A DNA stretch of 64,000 nucleotides from Planctomycetota bacterium. GTDB taxonomy: Bacteria; Planctomycetota; MHYJ01; WSZJ01; JACPWG01. The stretch lies in assembly GCA_016197205.1 (NCBI GenBank), contig JACPWG010000100.1:8250-72249 (forward strand), in the 5' to 3' direction. Under the pieces are notes generated by a model. That model worked only from the letters and a program-made list of their open reading frames with translations, was not told the origin of the DNA and did not search any database. The position numbers and the translations under genes are program-made. Positions 3,539-64,000 of this stretch are shown in pieces. The number at the start of each line of letters is the position of its first letter. The stretch's first letter is position 1.

Positions 3539-4183
3539 TCAAGTGGACTCGGGCGGAGGCCCGTTCGGAAGATCGCACGGAGACTCGGGAGACGAATCCG
3601 GAGACGGTGCCTCGGACGGCGAGGCGTGCTTTTCCATGGGCGGACGCGGTCTCGGAAGAATCGTCGCCCTCACACCGGGCATGCCCCAATCGTCAGCGTC
3701 GTCGTCGCCGGGTCGCCATTCCCCCGGCTTGCCCTCCTCGCGCGGTGTCGGGCGCAGGTCCCGAAGGTGGTCGAGTGCCCGCTGCAGGTCTGTCGAGAGG
3801 TGCCGAACCCTGAGCAGGGACTTCACCCGAGTCAGCACTTCGAAAATGTTGATCGGTTTGTTCAGGAAATCGTCCGCGCCGTCCTGGATCCCCCGCTCCT
3901 TGTCTTCATCCGAATCCAGCGCCGTGATAAGCAACACCGGGATGTCCTTGGTCCGCTCGTCTTCCTTCAACTTGCGGCACACGTCAAAGCCGCTCAGCCC
4001 GCCCGGAAGCGCCACTTCCAAGAGGATGATGTCCGCCCCCTGGCAAAACGCAACCTCCAGGGCCTCCGCCCCGGTCGCGGCCATGTGCACTTCGTACCCG
4101 CCTCCCGTCAGACACTCCTTCAGCAACTCGGCATCCGCCGAGTAATCCTCAGCCACCAAGATCCGGATCGCACGCTGCGCCAT
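3539..4183 (-). CDS. response regulator receiver (CheY-like REC) with a Pro-rich C-terminal tail
   Basis: MAQRAIRILVAEDY...ADIILLEVALPGGLSGFDVCRKLK...IPVLLITA is a canonical REC. A GAAGAGG RBS precedes the ATG at 4183. Confidence 0.85.
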   Translation of the reverse strand: MAQRAIRILVAEDYSADAELLKECLTGGGYEVHMAATGAEALEVAFCQGADIILLEVALPGGLSGFDVCRKLKEDERTKDIPVLLITALDSDEDKERGIQDGADDFLNKPINIFEVLTRVKSLLRVRHLSTDLQRALDHLRDLRPTPREEGKPGEWRPGDDDADDWGMPGVRATILPRPRPPMEKHASPSEAPSPDSSPESPCDLPNGPPPEST

Positions 4184-41692: not shown

Positions 41693-42186
41693 GCGAAAGG
41701 CGATGGGGAGTGGATCCGTGTAGAGTTCCGAATCGGCGGTGATCCGGCGGGGCGGCTGTCGTAAGGGACGTCGCGTCCGCTCCCCAACCCGCGCGGTGCC
41801 GGCAGGGTCGGTCGGCTCGATGACGACGCCGGGTCCGGAGCCATGGAGAGTGATCGGCTCGCCGGCGTCCGCGCACGGAGGGTGCGTGGACGTTGTGCCG
41901 GGAGCTTGTTCCTGCGGCAAGGGTCTGCTCCTTCTCGGGTAGCCCTGCTGGATCCACCGCGTGGCCAACGCCCGATAACGAAGCGATCTTACCGCGGGTT
42001 TCGCCGCTGCGCAAGTCATATTTTATGCTTTGTAAACTGCGGAGTGCGTGCCTCGTGAGACCGGACTCCTGACCGGCAGATTGACAACCCACCGCGCCGG
42101 GTGATACGATGCGCCGCGTTCCGATAACGACCCTTGGCCCGCCGCCGCCGTCGGCCAACGGTCCGCGCAAGGGGTGCCGCAGCCCA

Positions 42187-58983: not shown

Positions 58984-59892
58984 CTACTGTCCTACCGTCG
59001 CCTGGAAGGTGTATACGTGCACCGGAGGCTGGTTGGGATCGTTCCACTGCCCGGCCGTGAGGAGATCATAGTTCCGGAAGATGCGCACCCGGAATTCCCA
59101 GCGATTCACGAGCACCGGGGGATTGACATTGGGACGGTTTAGGTTCGGATTGGGGTTCGGCACCCGCTCAACGATGAAGTCGTAGAAGTACTGCATCGAG
59201 TCGACCGTCACGTCAGTGGCCAAGAGGACGTTCGGTACATCGGGTGGCGTGGGCGCCACCGAGCCGTTGACGTCCCGCACCAGGCGGACGAGGGGGTTCG
59301 GGGACAGGCCCACCTGAGGCGTCCCGCCGATGCGGAAGATCTCGTTGCCGAGGGGATTGACTCCCGCGACGGTCGCGGGCACCCATGCGCCGACCGGCGT
59401 GACGCCGAAAGTGAAGGTGTTGAAGTTCGACGTCGAGGCCGGCGAGGGCGTGGGGGCGGCTTCGATGGTGTTGGGGAGCTGGGGGTACAACCGGCCGCCG
59501 GGGTGGTGCCGCTTGTCCCCCGACTCATACGGCAGCGGAAAGGGATACTGGGGCATGGTGGTGTTGGGCAAGGCGACCATGGAGCTCGTACCCGTGCCGA
59601 CGCCGTCATGAATGAAATTCACCCAGAGGATGGGGCCCTGGTTGTTGGCGACCGGATTCGCCTGCGCCCGTGGAGCGGACATCGCAACCTGAAGGGCTGC
59701 GGCCACGGACTGGGCGAGCATGGAGGCGTTGAATTCTTCCGAGGTCTCCTTTGTCTGGCGGATGCCGAGGACGAGGAGCGACATCACGCCCGTGATGCCG
59801 ATGAGGAGGATGACCAGTGCGACGAGGATTTCGATCAGCGTGAAAGCCGAGCGAGGCGTCGAATCGCCTCGCCGGCTGAGAGGCGAGTCCAT
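58984..59892 (-). CDS. prepilin-type N-terminal cleavage/methylation domain protein (pseudopilin A)
   Basis: MDSPLSRRGDSTPRSAFTLIEILVALVILLIGITGVMSLL. 16-aa leader. Confidence 0.75.
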   Translation of the reverse strand: MDSPLSRRGDSTPRSAFTLIEILVALVILLIGITGVMSLLVLGIRQTKETSEEFNASMLAQSVAAALQVAMSAPRAQANPVANNQGPILWVNFIHDGVGTGTSSMVALPNTTMPQYPFPLPYESGDKRHHPGGRLYPQLPNTIEAAPTPSPASTSNFNTFTFGVTPVGAWVPATVAGVNPLGNEIFRIGGTPQVGLSPNPLVRLVRDVNGSVAPTPPDVPNVLLATDVTVDSMQYFYDFIVERVPNPNPNLNRPNVNPPVLVNRWEFRVRIFRNYDLLTAGQWNDPNQPPVHVYTFQATVGQ

Positions 59893-60110
59893 GCGCGCGG
59901 ATCTCCGGCGTGGAACCGGGGCCAGGGAAGGAATGAAGATGAGCCTGAAAGCGAGTATAGCGAGCGCGGGGAGAGCGAGGCAAGGGAAAAACGCTGGAAC
60001 GAGCGTATGCGCCGAAAGCAGATCGGGCATCCGCGGTGACCGGCAGAGGACTGACGAGCAGGGCCCGAGGGTCCCCAACCGCCGCTCCCGCCCGCCCGCC
60101 AAAATCCCCC

Positions 60111-60231
60111 CTGCTCCGTACCCGCCCTGCGGTAGCATTGCCGACGTGCGCACGCCACGAGTCGCGGCTCGCCTGCTCACCTTCGCCGCCCTCGCGCTCG
60201 CAGCGCTTCTGATCCTGCGCCCCAGCGCCGG
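60111..60231 (+). repeat. 121-bp direct repeat, left copy (duplicate of the 5' UTR plus signal-peptide region of the GH99-like gene; contains a GTG-initiated 41-codon remnant ORF at 60146-60271)
   Basis: Aligns at about 75-80% identity to 61248-61368 (CCGTACCCGCC.TGCGGTA.CAT.GCCGAC.TGCGCA...CTCGCAGCGCT.CTGAT). Confidence 0.75.
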
Positions 60232-60365
60232 AAGACCTCGCCGCCGAGCAACCCGGACGCCGCCGCCTTGACCCGGCACCGAACGCCCGCGTATAATGCG
60301 CGTGTGGCGTCAGCAAAAAGAGCGAGAAGCTCCACCCCAGTCGAGCTGCTGCCGAGGGCACAGAC

Positions 60366-61148
60366 ATGCCGAGCCCCTTCCCGGGCATGGACCCCTACCT
60401 TGAAGACCCGAGCCTCTTCGCGGGCTTCCACGAGGGTCTGGCGGTCGAGATGCGCCGCCGGTTGAACAGCCTCCTGCCACGCCCGTACGCGGCCGACGTC
60501 GGCTATCGGTTGGTCACCGACTCGATGGACGACGAGGAAGTCCGCGTCTTTCTTCCCGATGTCGCCGTGCCCCGCGAACCCGCCTCCCCTCTTCGGGAGG
60601 AACGCTCAGCCGCAGGCACCGGCTCCAGGACCGCCCCCGTCTCCCTCCTCATGCCCCTTCCCGTGCCCGCGAAGCAGTGTTACGTGGAAGTGCGTAGCCT
60701 TGCGCCGGAGCGCCTCGTGACCGCGATCGAGATCGTTTCCCGGAGCAACAAAAGGCCCGGAAGCGAAGACCAGGAGGCCTTCGCACGGAAGCGCCTGCGG
60801 TATCTGGCCTCGACGATTCACTATCTTGAAATCGATCTGCTCCGAGATGGGGAACGGTGGCCGGCTGCGGCCGACGAGCCGCGCGCGGCCTACCGAGTGC
60901 TCCTGAGTCGAGCCGACCGCCGCCCCCGTGGGGAGGTCTGGCCGATCCACCTCCCCGATCCCTTGCCCGAGCTGCCGGTCCCCCTCCTGAGGCCGGACGC
61001 TGACGCGATCCTCCCGCTTGCCGCCTGCATGGCCTCCGTCTACGAGGACAGCGCCTACAGCCGGCGGATCGACTATCGTAGACCCGTGCCACGACCGCCC
61101 CTGGAGGAAGAGGCGCAGCGCTTCGTCGACCGACTGTTGGCAAGGTGA
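60366..61148 (+). CDS. DUF4058-family protein (putative PD-(D/E)XK nuclease-like fold)
   Basis: Characteristic N-terminus MPSPFPGMDPYLEDPSLFAGFHEGL. About 260 aa. Confidence 0.6.
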   Translation: MPSPFPGMDPYLEDPSLFAGFHEGLAVEMRRRLNSLLPRPYAADVGYRLVTDSMDDEEVRVFLPDVAVPREPASPLREERSAAGTGSRTAPVSLLMPLPVPAKQCYVEVRSLAPERLVTAIEIVSRSNKRPGSEDQEAFARKRLRYLASTIHYLEIDLLRDGERWPAAADEPRAAYRVLLSRADRRPRGEVWPIHLPDPLPELPVPLLRPDADAILPLAACMASVYEDSAYSRRIDYRRPVPRPPLEEEAQRFVDRLLAR

Positions 61149-61284
61149 CTCGACGACGAACTGCCACACTTCGCGGATCGATGACCGGGGAACCGGCTCT
61201 TTCAATGTCTCGCCCGCAACGGGGCGTCCCGCCTCCCGAAGTCCGCCTTGCTTCCCGTACCCGCCCCGCGGTATCATCGCCGAC

Positions 61285-62805
61285 ATGCGCATCCCACGCC
61301 CGAGGGCTCGCCCCCTCCCCCTCGTCGCCGCCACGCTCGCAGCGCTGCTGATGACGCGATCCGGCCGGGCCCCTGCACAAGAGGACCCCTCCGCCCCGCC
61401 GCCCGGCCCCCACCTCCCCCTCCGGGACGCGAGCGCACTCCCCGCTTCCCTCAGTCTCCGCGGCCGGACGGTCGCGGCCTACTACTTCTACTGGTACGAC
61501 GACGCGACGCAGGCACACGTCGTCGACCCGGACGGCACCGACGCGCTCCAGGACCACCCCGCGCGCAGGAAAGGGTTCTCCTACGCGGACCCCGCTTGGC
61601 ATTTCCGCGAGCTCAGCGACCTGCGCGAGGCAGGGATCGATCTCGTCCTGCCCGTCTTCTGGGGCGTCCCCGGCCGCCACGACGACTGGAACTTCGTCGG
61701 CCTCCGCGCCCTCGTCGCCGCGCTTGATCGTCTCGCGGACCCGCCGCGGGTCGGGCTCTTCTACGACACGACGACGCTCCAGGGGATCGACTTGACAGCG
61801 GAGGACGGACGGCTCCGGTTCTACCGGACCGTCCGCGACTTCTACTCCATGATCCCGCCCGCCCACTGGGCACGCCTCGACGGAAAGCCGCTGGTCTGGC
61901 TGTACTCCTCCCATTTCCCGAAGGCCGTGGACGCCGGCGCGTTCGCACGCCTCCGCGAGGCGCTGAAGACCGACTTCGCCGGGCTGGACGTTTTCGTGAT
62001 CGGCGATCCGGGCTGGGCTCGGCGCGCGCGTGCGTCGGTCCTCGACGCGACCTACGACTGGGGCGCCGCGCTCGGCGGGCCGCGGATTCACCCGGTCGTG
62101 GCGGCCGTCGGCCCGGGCTACGACGACTCCGCGGTGCCCGGACGGCGCACGCCGAAGCGGGACCGCGAGGGCGGCCGCTTCTACGAACGCGGCTGGCGCC
62201 GCGTGCTCCGCTCGGACGCGGCGATCGCCGTGGTGGAAACCTGGAACGAATTCCACGAAGGGACGGACGTCTGCGAGAGCCGGGAGTACGGCCGCGCTTA
62301 CATCGAGGCGACCGCGCGCTTCGCCGACCTCTTCCGGCGGCGAGAGCGTCCGCCGCGCCCCCAGGGGGAGTACGCGGACGCGCGGGAAACGACGTGGCGA
62401 CCCGGCGAGGCACGCGGCCTCCGCGCGGTCGATTGGGAGGACGGCCTGTTCGACCTGGCCGAAGGCGTTCTCCGCACCCGGGAGAACCGCTTCAGCCCCT
62501 ACCGCTATGCATACTTTGACGTCGACGACGATTTCGCGCCGGAGGAACCGGCGGACCTCGAGGTCTCCGCCGAGGTGTTGGACGACGGGACCGGCATCGT
62601 CCAGCTCTCCTACAACGGGGCCGACGACGTCTACGTCCGCGGCCCGCGCATCAGGCTCACGGACACAAGGGCGTGGCGGAAGCTGGTATTCCCGCTACGG
62701 GGCGCGCTGCTCCGGAACGCGCAAAACGGCGGCGCCGACTTCCGGTTCGCGATCGGGGAGCAGGACCTGTCGATCCGGCGCGTCGTCGTCCGCCGCCGGG
62801 AGTGA
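61285..62805 (+). CDS. secreted glycoside-hydrolase-family-99-like domain protein
   Basis: Signal peptide MRIPRPRARPLPLVAATLAALLMTRSGRAPA. Motifs AYYFYWYD and VETWNEFHEGTDV resemble GH99-like proteins. Confidence 0.55.
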   Translation: MRIPRPRARPLPLVAATLAALLMTRSGRAPAQEDPSAPPPGPHLPLRDASALPASLSLRGRTVAAYYFYWYDDATQAHVVDPDGTDALQDHPARRKGFSYADPAWHFRELSDLREAGIDLVLPVFWGVPGRHDDWNFVGLRALVAALDRLADPPRVGLFYDTTTLQGIDLTAEDGRLRFYRTVRDFYSMIPPAHWARLDGKPLVWLYSSHFPKAVDAGAFARLREALKTDFAGLDVFVIGDPGWARRARASVLDATYDWGAALGGPRIHPVVAAVGPGYDDSAVPGRRTPKRDREGGRFYERGWRRVLRSDAAIAVVETWNEFHEGTDVCESREYGRAYIEATARFADLFRRRERPPRPQGEYADARETTWRPGEARGLRAVDWEDGLFDLAEGVLRTRENRFSPYRYAYFDVDDDFAPEEPADLEVSAEVLDDGTGIVQLSYNGADDVYVRGPRIRLTDTRAWRKLVFPLRGALLRNAQNGGADFRFAIGEQDLSIRRVVVRRRE

Positions 62806-63639
62806 GGACGGACCGAAGGCGTCTCGTCGCGGGAGGGTGGAGGCAAGGAGAGAGGGGCGGGCGGGCGGAGGGAGTGGCCCGGCGAGCACCGGTCGCGCCC
62901 GAACGGCGCCGGCGGGAGACCGAGGGGAGCCCCCGGCGGCGGACGGGGGCGGGGACGGAGGGCTTCGGGGGGGGGTCGCAGGGCCACTCAGGCCCCGGTC
63001 GGGCCACCTCGCTTCACCGCTCGGCGTTTCGCAGCCCTTCGCCTGGCAACCTCGGCCCGCCGCTTCCTGGAATAGAGACGGAGGGGTGGGAAGGGCGCGG
63101 GTCGGACCTGGAAAACCTGACGACCTCCGCTTTCGAAGGCCTCCACGAACATATCGAGGATCTCCTCGTGGGAAACTGGGCGCGGGATCGGTTTCTTCAT
63201 GGTTTTCTCCCTTCCGGGGATGTCAGCCATACTCCGTTCAATATACAACCGACCGCCTCCTGGTTCAAGGCCCGCCCCATTCCAGCCAAAGTTCGCCGCA
63301 AGCCTCGAAGCCCACGCAGCAGGTGTGGCGAGCTGGGGTCGATCCAAGACTCGATCACGGTCACCCAGTCCCAGTGCGTTCGAGCGCCGGGTCCCCGCCC
63401 ATCGCGCCATTCACCGACGCCGCGACCGTAGGCGGTCGCGCCGCCGAAGAGCTCGGCGAGAAGTCGGAGCAGCCGAAGGATCCACCGATTTTGGAGGTCC
63501 ACGGGGACATGCTTCGAGGTACGATCTCCCTCCGGCACGAAGACCCAGAGGCAGTGGTGGAACGGAAAACTCGGGGGGCCTGCAAGGGCAAGCCGATTTG
63601 CCTGCTTCCTCTTCATCGCCATCCTCTCCATGCCCATGC

Positions 63640-63830
63640 CCAGCACTACAACGCTACAGCCAAAAGTTCGCCACCTGCGACGGACTCTGCCAAGCTCCGC
63701 CCCTGTTCGTAGTTCCGCCTTCAGGCGGCGCGTGCGGCGAGAACTGCGACACGTGGTTGGCAGCCCCGCCTAAAGGCGGAACTACGAACCAGTTGGGCTC
63801 GAAGGCTCCACTTCTTTAGCGTTGTAGTGC
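63640..63830. repeat. inverted-repeat-bounded element (GCACTACAACGCT ... AGCGTTGTAGTGC) with an internal palindrome GTTCGTAGTTCCGCC...GGCGGAACTACGAAC
   Basis: Ends and interior are reverse-complementary. Single copy in the window. Confidence 0.5.
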
Positions 63831-64000
63831 TAGGCGACTCCGCCTTCGAGTTCGACTTGTTCGACGAGACTCAGCCAGGGCCGGCTGGAGGTTGCGTGAT
63901 GCGTGAAGCCAGGAAGCGCAGTCCTCCACGCCGAAACGAGGGAGCTCGCAGGACACGGCACTGTCCCGGACCCGCACGCCGTGCACGCGCCGGCGATTCG

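Follow-up and report, generated by a model that had tools for sequence, protein, structure and literature searches.

A DUF4058 gene between diverged copies of the 5' region of a GH99-like gene in a Planctomycetota bacterium

In a contig of a Planctomycetota bacterium, a gene of the large uncharacterised DUF4058 family lies between direct repeats that copy the 5' region of the next gene downstream, and the arrangement raises the question of whether the DUF4058 gene moved there by itself or was carried along in a rearrangement. The features of the locus in the window (the whole analysed stretch of 64,000 nt) are as follows.

58984 to 59892, minus strand: first gene of a pseudopilin-like cluster, encoding 302 aa with a prepilin-type N-terminal methylation motif; borders the locus on the left
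59954 to 59983, minus strand: promoter-like sequence TTGCCT-N18-TATACT, directed towards the pseudopilin cluster (9/12 in a consensus scan)
60091 to 60213, plus strand: left copy, part 1, decayed; 57 nt 5' of the GH99-like start and codons 1-23
60146 to 60271, plus strand: 41-codon GTG ORF from the ORF list, a reading frame across the putative relic
60219 to 60286, plus strand: left copy, part 2, a frameshifted continuation homologous to GH99-like codons 29-51
60268 to 60297, plus strand: sigma-70-type promoter match, TTGACC-N18-TATAAT, 68 nt 5' of the DUF4058 gene
60366 to 61148, plus strand: DUF4058 gene (260 aa, MBI3270874.1), intact
61149 to 61227, plus strand: 79-nt spacer from the DUF4058 stop codon to the right copy
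61228 to 61436, plus strand: right copy, the working 5' region belonging to the GH99-like gene
61285 to 62805, plus strand: GH99/DUF5010-like secreted protein gene (506 aa, MBI3270875.1, HYZ53_17875)

Extent and state of the repeated region

An earlier note had described direct repeats of 121 bp and about 75-80% identity at 60111-60231 and 61248-61368. The homology proved to be real, with blastn, shuffled controls and a second assembly in agreement. Blastn against the window aligned 60091-60213 with 61228-61352 at 76.8% identity over 125 columns (E = 7e-22), the ungapped segments 60116-60226 and 61255-61365 were 76% identical, and the local alignment score was 79.5, compared to a mean of 25 (sd 3.5) for shuffles. 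The same run assembled independently by Logan (L001) showed an identical arrangement, and since the copies are only 77% identical, duplication by the assembly is impossible. The 64-kb window contained two copies of the repeat and no more; a 23-nt partial match at 41733-41755 was examined and discarded. As the search covered these 64 kb, further copies of the 5' region may lie elsewhere in the genome.

The length of 121 bp did not hold, as the homology starts about 25 nt further upstream and resumes for 68 nt past an 8+3-nt gap. This second block (60219-60286 against 61369-61436, 44/68 matches, ungapped) lies on a diagonal offset by 11 nt, and the net change is an 11-nt deletion in the left copy. 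Its diagonal scored 20, compared to 9 or less for each other diagonal (p = 0.0005 with shuffles and 0.0015 with random genomic segments). Within the block, identity drops from 70% over the first 40 nt to 57% over the final 28 nt, and confidence falls past about 60258. Further upstream of the two copies, homology was not significant (p = 0.09). Over the whole repeat, identity was about 73% (140/191), or about 27% divergence. As the repeat is longer than first described, the segment between the copies measures about 0.94-1.0 kb and not 1.1 kb, while the description of DUF4058 as the only gene in it was correct.

The right copy was confirmed as the 5' region of the GH99-like gene by the alignments and by the NCBI and Logan gene calls, which agree on a start at ATG 61285. 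It consists of 57 nt of upstream sequence with TTGCTT-N18-TATCAT, 7 nt, the ATG, a signal-peptide-like stretch MRIPRPRARPLPLVAATLAALLMTRSGRAPA with the likely cleavage site before QED, and the first mature codons. The signal peptide and its cleavage site were assigned by eye, and the N-terminus may function as a signal peptide; homology between the copies spans the likely cleavage site and enters the mature N-terminus. That the repeat duplicates the promoter of this gene, as had been proposed, is unproven, as the upstream element matches the consensus at 8/12 positions, a weak likeness, and was not called in a promoter consensus scan. The encoded protein matched Glyco_hydro_99 (PF16317, E = 8.9e-09) and DUF5010 (PF16402, E = 2.6e-06), passing the gathering scores marginally (35.4 bits for a threshold of 33 and 27.2 for one of 23.7, respectively). 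With 466 homologues at E <= 1e-50 that have the same domains, it is predicted to be a member of the GH99/DUF5010-like glycoside hydrolase family.

In the left copy, the start codon has changed from ATG to GTG (60146), the -10-like hexamer from TATCAT to TAGCAT and the -35-like hexamer from TTGCTT to CTGCTC. Matches by region of part 1 were 19/25, 27/30 and 50/68; the 30-nt core just 5' of the start codon is 90% identical, compared to 65-76% elsewhere, a contrast of marginal significance. This core occurs exactly twice in the window (0 expected). Part 2 reads APAPEDLAAEQPG, and its counterpart on the right reads APAQEDPSAPPPG. Matches were distributed evenly over the three codon positions (15, 16 and 17 of 22) with no third-position excess, as expected under neutral decay. 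Since the homology continues into coding sequence beyond the net 11-nt deletion, the left copy can be read as a frameshifted pseudogene relic covering about -57 to +150, and 60091-60286 is thus a predicted pseudogene fragment of the GH99-like 5' region.

The earlier note had taken the left copy to be a GTG-initiated remnant. It is a remnant of the GH99-like 5' region, but the 41-codon ORF is not a surviving reading frame, as its frame departs from that of the homologous coding region at about codon 23-24. GC content by codon position is flat in this ORF (0.79/0.74/0.71), compared to a GC3 of 0.80-0.94 in neighbouring genes and most long ORFs checked, and it had no Pfam match. To judge from its composition and frame, the ORF is fortuitous, and it should not be called as a gene in annotation.

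The DUF4058 gene and its surroundings

Pfam scanning of MBI3270874.1 detected DUF4058 alone (PF13267, E = 4.4e-70, 236 bits with a gathering cut-off of 25), over profile positions 1-253 of 254, and every column that is invariant among 72 homologues is kept; the protein is predicted to be a full-length family member. An AlphaFold2 model had a pLDDT of 88. PADLOC and NCBIfam gave no match, and no literature on DUF4058 or PF13267 was found. GC3 of the gene (0.805) and GC of the segment are both host-like, and no compositional anomaly was detected in either measure. The site TTGACC-N18-TATAAT matches the sigma-70 consensus at 11/12 positions, where 0.1 sites were expected in shuffles, and is a candidate promoter for the gene; its -35 hexamer sits at the distal edge of the left copy. 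In the 79-nt spacer behind the gene we found no terminator-like site on the plus strand, and nothing similar to the spacer elsewhere in the window. The family itself is found in tandem arrays and has a nearly invariant N-terminus.

On the left, the locus is bordered by the divergently transcribed pseudopilin-like cluster. Its first gene, also called in the Logan contig, encodes a protein matching Pfam N_methyl (E = 3e-06), and a word-indexed search of a 5.8-billion-protein database returned no homologue but itself. Rfam had no match in the region, the single match in the window being a tRNA. No related genome with an empty or otherwise filled site was present in the searched collections.

Proposed mobility of the DUF4058 gene

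The flanking repeats had been read as a signature of DUF4058 mobility. This reading was not supported by inspection of the locus, where inverted ends, a recombinase and a close second copy were all missing, or by comparison with 70 other loci, which offered no parallel. No terminal inverted repeats were detected (best head-to-tail match 7 nt, E = 0.6), and none of the inverted repeats reported formed such a pair. The called genes of a 10.4-kb Logan contig covering 52.5-62.9 kb of the window included no recombinase, nor did two ORFs checked 3' of the GH99-like gene, and no tyrosine or serine integrase was found between or beside the repeats. DUF4058 is the sole gene of the putative element. The flanks of the insert had no other copy and no similarity to other sequence. 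The module itself occurs once in the window, and the check for near-identical copies covered 64 kb plus 8.6 kb of the genome. The best database homologue of the protein is 50% identical, and a second DUF4058 paralogue in the same metagenome-assembled genome (MAG) is 48% identical and has no shared flanks.

A survey of other DUF4058 loci showed a comparable flanking duplication at 0 of 70. Repeats in the flanks of these loci were short REP-like palindromes or unrelated paralogous bits: matches at loci L134 and L084/L100 were rejected as REP-like short repeats, and that at L132 as a 57-nt paralogous bit 0.4-0.6 kb from the DUF4058 gene. One DUF4058 protein was found on 12 contigs, with identical neighbours in all eight contigs listed. 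Phage and IMG/VR collections yielded no DUF4058 protein.

Target duplications made by transposons and insertion sequences span from a few bp to about 14 bp, in rare cases some tens of bp, and recent ones consist of identical copies. As in those elements, the direct repeats here directly flank an inserted segment. Here, however, the repeat is about 125-200 bp long and 27% diverged, and a transposase or other recombinase gene, terminal inverted repeats and near-identical copies are all lacking.

Could the DUF4058 gene nevertheless be a mobile unit, for instance a nuclease-driven one, that inserts with a target-site duplication of about 125-200 bp? The repeats do bracket one self-contained promoter-plus-gene module. 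Its family occurs in multiple copies and has a scattered phyletic distribution (5438 matches in many phyla, at a flat 45-50% identity), the same MAG holds the second paralogue, and a few cyanobacterial plasmids carry DUF4058. In addition, a conserved P-D ... E-I-x-S-P-x-N-K ... E-I-D pattern, together with weak matches of 2/72 members to the Uma2 profile, suggests a PD-(D/E)XK-like nuclease. Uma2/DUF820 proteins (PF05685), which are predicted PD-(D/E)XK endonucleases present in multiple copies in cyanobacteria, resemble DUF4058 in size, in a PD ... E-[IV]-x-S-P ... pattern and in being multi-copy, but DUF4058 forms a separate Pfam family. A mobile-element context has been described for Uma2/DUF820 in gamma-proteobacteria (PMC3424549). 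Nuclease fold and activity are putative, as Foldseek and PDB sequence searches with DUF4058 returned no solved-structure relative. Against mobility stand the missing inverted ends and near-identical copy, the survey of 70 loci, the constant neighbours in the eight contigs listed, the absence from phage and viral collections and the host-like composition, and no transposition mechanism is known to give target duplications of 100-200 bp; moreover, expansion of the family takes the form of tandem arrays and not of dispersed copies. We consider a mobile DUF4058 unit very unlikely. Slightly more remote still is the specific proposal that DUF4058 proteins are nucleases mobilising their own promoter-plus-gene module by widely staggered cuts, the repair of which would duplicate 100-200 bp of target. 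Were it true, such modules would represent a novel type of minimal selfish element, with the present locus as an old, decayed example. That DUF4058 genes move by themselves is not supported by anything observed here, and if the account given below holds, an apparent hint of mobility for the family is removed.

Origin of the arrangement

The reading we favour, and hold to be probable, is that the locus is the scar of a single old local rearrangement in which the DUF4058 gene was a passenger and not the agent. A compact module of about 0.95 kb, made up of the sigma-70-type promoter match and the DUF4058 gene, would have landed inside the 5' end of the GH99/DUF5010-like gene, leaving the region from about -57 to +150, counted from the start codon, in two copies. 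Of these, the downstream one would have stayed attached to the gene body and remained functional, while the upstream one, severed from the gene, would have decayed to a non-coding relic. The most likely mechanism is an illegitimate or homology-facilitated insertion, in which homology in or near the gene may have fixed one end of the incoming DNA while its other end joined at an unrelated point; such insertions can duplicate recipient sequence, and selection would keep those products that have an intact copy of the gene. We infer this mechanism and the direction of the event; what is observed is the extent of the homology, the frameshift and degraded signals of the left copy, the intact DUF4058 and GH99-like genes, and the absence of features typical of transposons or integrases. 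A search for a relic of the GH99-like 3' end was negative. If the account holds, the locus is an example of a 5'-end insertion tolerated by way of a duplicated 5' region, with decay of the orphan copy.

Homology-facilitated illegitimate recombination resembles the situation here in that a one-step insertion can duplicate or delete recipient sequence and involves no inverted repeats or recombinase, and from what is generally known of such scars it would account for a sharply defined junction at the incoming promoter's edge. The locus differs in that neither a donor sequence nor a microhomology junction nor a related recipient is available for comparison, and divergence blurs the junctions. Islands flanked by att sites offer a second comparison. 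Prophages and islands duplicate gene ends at their integration sites, as e14 and phage 21 do in icd and islands do in tRNA genes. In both cases inserted DNA lies between direct repeats that copy one end of a target gene, one copy keeping the gene intact and the other being a partial pseudo-copy, and, from background knowledge, the repeats of islands are of comparable size (tens to about 165 bp). Unlike islands, the insert here is about 1 kb with one gene and no integrase, it is the 5' end that is duplicated, the copies agree at only 73-77% of positions, and neither an excised nor an empty form is known.

A two-step history was also considered, in which the GH99-like gene or its 5' part was duplicated in tandem, the body of the upstream copy was lost or replaced, and DUF4058 entered the neutral relic. 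Direct repeats in bacteria arise most often by tandem duplication, and a gene copy that is already dead offers a permissive landing site; the relic also includes true coding sequence past the signal peptide. We nevertheless regard this history as unlikely, though worth keeping in view. Neither the rest of a second GH99-like gene nor a duplication junction was found on either side of DUF4058, the upstream flanks lack significant extra homology, as noted above, and two independent rare events would be required within 200 bp. In addition, a protein search of genome contigs showed neither a tandem GH99-like pair nor a DUF4058 gene at any of 80 GH99-like loci elsewhere; the association with DUF4058 is thus specific to this lineage.

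The 90% identical core could mean that the left copy is still functional, which would count against the preferred account. The left copy might be kept as a working operator or promoter shared with the control of the GH99-like gene, or as a gene for a small membrane peptide. Consistent with this, the core CCGTACCCGCCCYGCGGTAKCATYGCCGAC is identical at 27/30 positions, both copies preserve an imperfect palindrome within it (TACC-c-GC/GC-GGTA), and the left ORF still has positive charge at its N-terminus together with a hydrophobic stretch, LLTFAALALAALLIL. However, start codon, -10-like and -35-like hexamers are all weakened, the frame is broken relative to the homologous gene, GC is flat across codon positions, and third positions are not enriched in substitutions. 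No further occurrence of the core motif was found in the window, and JGI metagenomes gave 0 matches; the excess conservation of the core reaches an estimated P of about 0.05 on 30 nt. A retained function of the left copy therefore appears improbable.

Under the preferred account of a single rearrangement, the identity of about 73% implies that the event is old or that the copies had already diverged when they were joined. For non-coding DNA in a bacterium, a relic that lasts to 27% divergence is long-lived, unless the two sequences had diverged before joining. The nearest relatives of the GH99-like protein are a partial orthologue at 67% identity (L002) and a full-length match at 53% from the protein search. 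The gene context of the 67% orthologue differs, and its upstream region and signal peptide are unrelated to those here, whereas the mature N-terminus is conserved (81% DNA identity over 48 nt), indicating that the duplication is younger than the split between the two genes.

The repeat and its extent

Two direct repeats lie on either side of a DUF4058 gene, the right copy forming the 5' region of a gene for a secreted GH99/DUF5010-like protein (the GH99-like gene).

Features of the locus
58984-59892, minus strand: 302-aa pseudopilin-like protein
60268-60297, plus strand: predicted match to the sigma-70 consensus, TTGACC-N18-TATAAT, 11/12 positions, 0.1 expected (consensus scan)
60366-61148, plus strand: DUF4058 gene, MBI3270874.1
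61285-62805, plus strand: GH99-like gene, MBI3270875.1

The gene identities proposed in the earlier note were borne out by Pfam: 60366-61148 encodes a full-length DUF4058 protein (E = 4.4e-70), the 506-aa product read from the ATG at 61285 matches Glyco_hydro_99 and DUF5010, and genes to the left, on the opposite strand, carry prepilin-type N-terminal methylation motifs. The source is an 80-kb contig of a groundwater Planctomycetota MAG, in which the GH99-like gene has locus tag HYZ53_17875. A search of 5.8 billion proteins returned no homologue of the 302-aa protein but itself, and no Pfam matches are on record for three other genes of the cluster (370, 1171 and 463 aa); the cluster appears to be lineage-specific and pilin-like.

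A repeat finder matched 60116-60226 to 61255-61365 (76% identity, ungapped, spacing 1139), and blastn matched 60091-60213 to 61228-61352 (76.8% over 125 columns; E = 7e-22 in a window-sized search). Local alignment of the copies scored 79.5, compared to 25 +/- 3.5 for shuffled sequence. A 30-nt core (CCGTACCCGCCCYGCGGTAKCATYGCCGAC) occurred exactly twice in the 64 kb, with 0 occurrences expected, and blastn found no third place similar to either copy in the window. The arrangement of repeats and genes was identical in L001, a Logan contig assembled independently from the same sequencing run, and since the copies differ at one site in four, an assembly artefact is impossible. The two stretches are thus homologous direct repeats, as had been claimed, but they exceed the 121 bp originally assigned to them. 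The register of the alignment breaks past 60213/61352, and after an 11-nt shift 60219-60286 matches 61369-61436 at 44 of 68 ungapped positions. This diagonal was unique, with a score of 20; the other 34 diagonals from -15 to +19 nt all scored 9 or less. With near-collinear diagonals only, the frequency of such a score was 0.05% in shuffles and 0.15% in random genomic segments. Gapped alignment placed 8-nt and 3-nt deletions in the left copy. Identity was 76% in the distal upstream part, 90% in the 30-nt core, 74% in the signal peptide and 65% in the mature N-terminus (73% overall).

The left copy and the interval between the repeats

The right-copy frame over 61369-61436 encodes APA-QEDPSAPPPG, in which signal peptidase is likely to cut between APA and QED, so that QED would begin the mature GH99-like protein. 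This mature N-terminus is kept in the nearest orthologue, on contig L002 (81% DNA identity over 48 nt), indicating genuine coding sequence. At the matching stretch the left copy gives APAPEDLAAEQPG, out of frame with its own GTG. It is thus a relic of the GH99-like gene, covering about -57 to +150. The earlier note was therefore right to see a remnant of the GH99-like 5' end here, but the 41-codon GTG ORF is a chance frame spanning the relic, not an in-frame remnant. Its GC is flat across codon positions (for real genes in this DNA, GC3 is mostly 0.80-0.94), and left/right matches are even over codon positions 1, 2 and 3 (15, 16 and 17 of 22). Decay is seen in the start codon (ATG to GTG), the -10-like hexamer (TATCAT to TAGCAT) and the -35-like hexamer (TTGCTT to CTGCTC, with a 2-nt gap).

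Only the DUF4058 gene separates the copies, as first described. The predicted promoter, whose -35 hexamer is positioned where relic homology fades, lies partly on sequence descended from the decayed coding region and is followed by a 68-nt leader, the intact DUF4058 gene, 79 nt and the right copy. This promoter match stands out against a genomic GC content of about 68%. No plus-strand terminator-like site was found in the 79 nt between the DUF4058 stop and the right copy. Ahead of the GH99-like start, the right copy is only weakly promoter-like (8/12, below calling in the consensus scan); 7 nt separate its -10-like hexamer from the ATG at 61285, which no Shine-Dalgarno-like sequence precedes. 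The GH99-like transcript could possibly be leaderless, or arise by read-through from the predicted DUF4058 promoter.

The DUF4058 family

In an alignment of 72 homologues, P64-D65, E122, N128-K129, E155 and D157 were invariant or nearly so, as was the N-terminus MPSPFPGMDPY-E. The AF2 model, of high confidence (pLDDT 88), arranges a helix, three strands, a helix and a strand as PD-(D/E)XK cores typically do, and Pfam Uma2 touched 2 of the 72 members (E = 0.028). Together these make the predicted nuclease fold plausible. The first 13 residues (MPSPFPGMDPYLE, 60366-60404) are nearly invariant from residue 1 in proteins otherwise only about 45% identical, and such conservation of the extreme N-terminus is unusual.

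We collected 95 other DUF4058 loci, of which 70 had enough flank for the 1-kb stretches on the two sides of the gene to be compared with each other. A long duplication adjoined the gene in none of the 70. Flank matches in L134 (a 29-nt REP-like palindrome, 2782-2810 and 3781-3809) and in L084 and L100 (short multi-copy repeats; L084 5000-5170 and 6880-6960) were rejected; those of L134 and L084, unrelated metagenome contigs, have the look of repeats found genome-wide, not of target duplications. The match in L132 was a 57-nt bit 0.4-0.6 kb away from the gene, and remaining matches were at most 34 nt. One DUF4058 protein occurred on 12 contigs, with the same neighbours in all eight shown. Head-to-tail arrays of two or three diverged DUF4058 genes at six of about 95 loci (L097, L098, L099, L113, L116, L173) on metagenome contigs suggest that the family expands through local duplications. 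The MAG carries another DUF4058 paralogue, MBI3270055.1 (48% identical), with the similarity confined to coding sequence and flanks not shared; it occupies 6001-6801 of L083 and is preceded by a promoter-like TTGCTG-N17-CATAAT, and as the contig stops 22 nt past the gene, the flank comparison concerns essentially the upstream side. DUF4058 was absent from the phage collection and IMG/VR and present on seven cyanobacterial plasmid records; a literature search found no mention of DUF4058 or PF13267.

Origin of the arrangement

Two things are needed to produce this structure: about 200 bp from the 5' region of the GH99-like gene must have been duplicated, and a DUF4058 module must have come to lie between the copies. 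We favour, as the probable reading, a local rearrangement scar with DUF4058 as passenger. A single illegitimate or homology-facilitated insertion would have duplicated recipient sequence, selection would have kept only the product with an intact GH99-like copy, and the orphaned left copy would have decayed afterwards. If the incoming DNA brought its own diverged 5' region, the 27% divergence would not all postdate the event. The main rival, duplication first and DUF4058 insertion later, is appreciably less likely, having neither a junction trace nor a precedent. That the left copy retains function, as suggested solely by its better-conserved palindromic core, seems improbable. Transposition driven by DUF4058 with a giant target duplication is the least credible, the repeat itself being its one positive support: terminal inverted repeats are missing from the insert, a search for recombinases came up empty both in the genes called on the Logan contig (window 52.5-62.9 kb) and in two tested ORFs beyond the 3' end of the GH99-like gene, the survey of 70 loci showed no adjoining duplications, and the second paralogue of the MAG shares no flanks. 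The 79-nt flanks matched nothing else in the window, no trace of the remainder of a second GH99-like gene was present around DUF4058, and the DUF4058 gene is inside the host range in GC (0.68) and GC3 (0.805). The footprint described in the earlier note is thus real, but the mobility read from it is not supported; the locus is an old, ordinary rearrangement scar beside an uncharacterised gene.

The L002 protein (67% identical) comes from another groundwater MAG. Pseudopilins and DUF4058 are absent from its locus, the preceding gene is unrelated, and neither the upstream region nor the signal peptide is related to those here. The duplication postdates the split from the L002 lineage, since the two copies agree at 74-90% in fast-evolving segments (upstream region and signal peptide) that are unrecognisable in L002. 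None of 80 GH99-like loci had DUF4058 or a tandem GH99-like pair, the nearest DUF4058 homologue was 50% identical, and the 30-nt core was absent from JGI metagenomes.

Downstream of the GH99-like gene lies a long nested imperfect palindrome (63638-63835), with no Rfam match and an arm sequence found nowhere else in the window. Its inner arms (63705-63731/63763-63789, 93% complementary) are enclosed by arms at 63638-63659/63814-63835, and as RNA it has a predicted fold of -114.6 kcal/mol (z = -5.6 vs shuffles).
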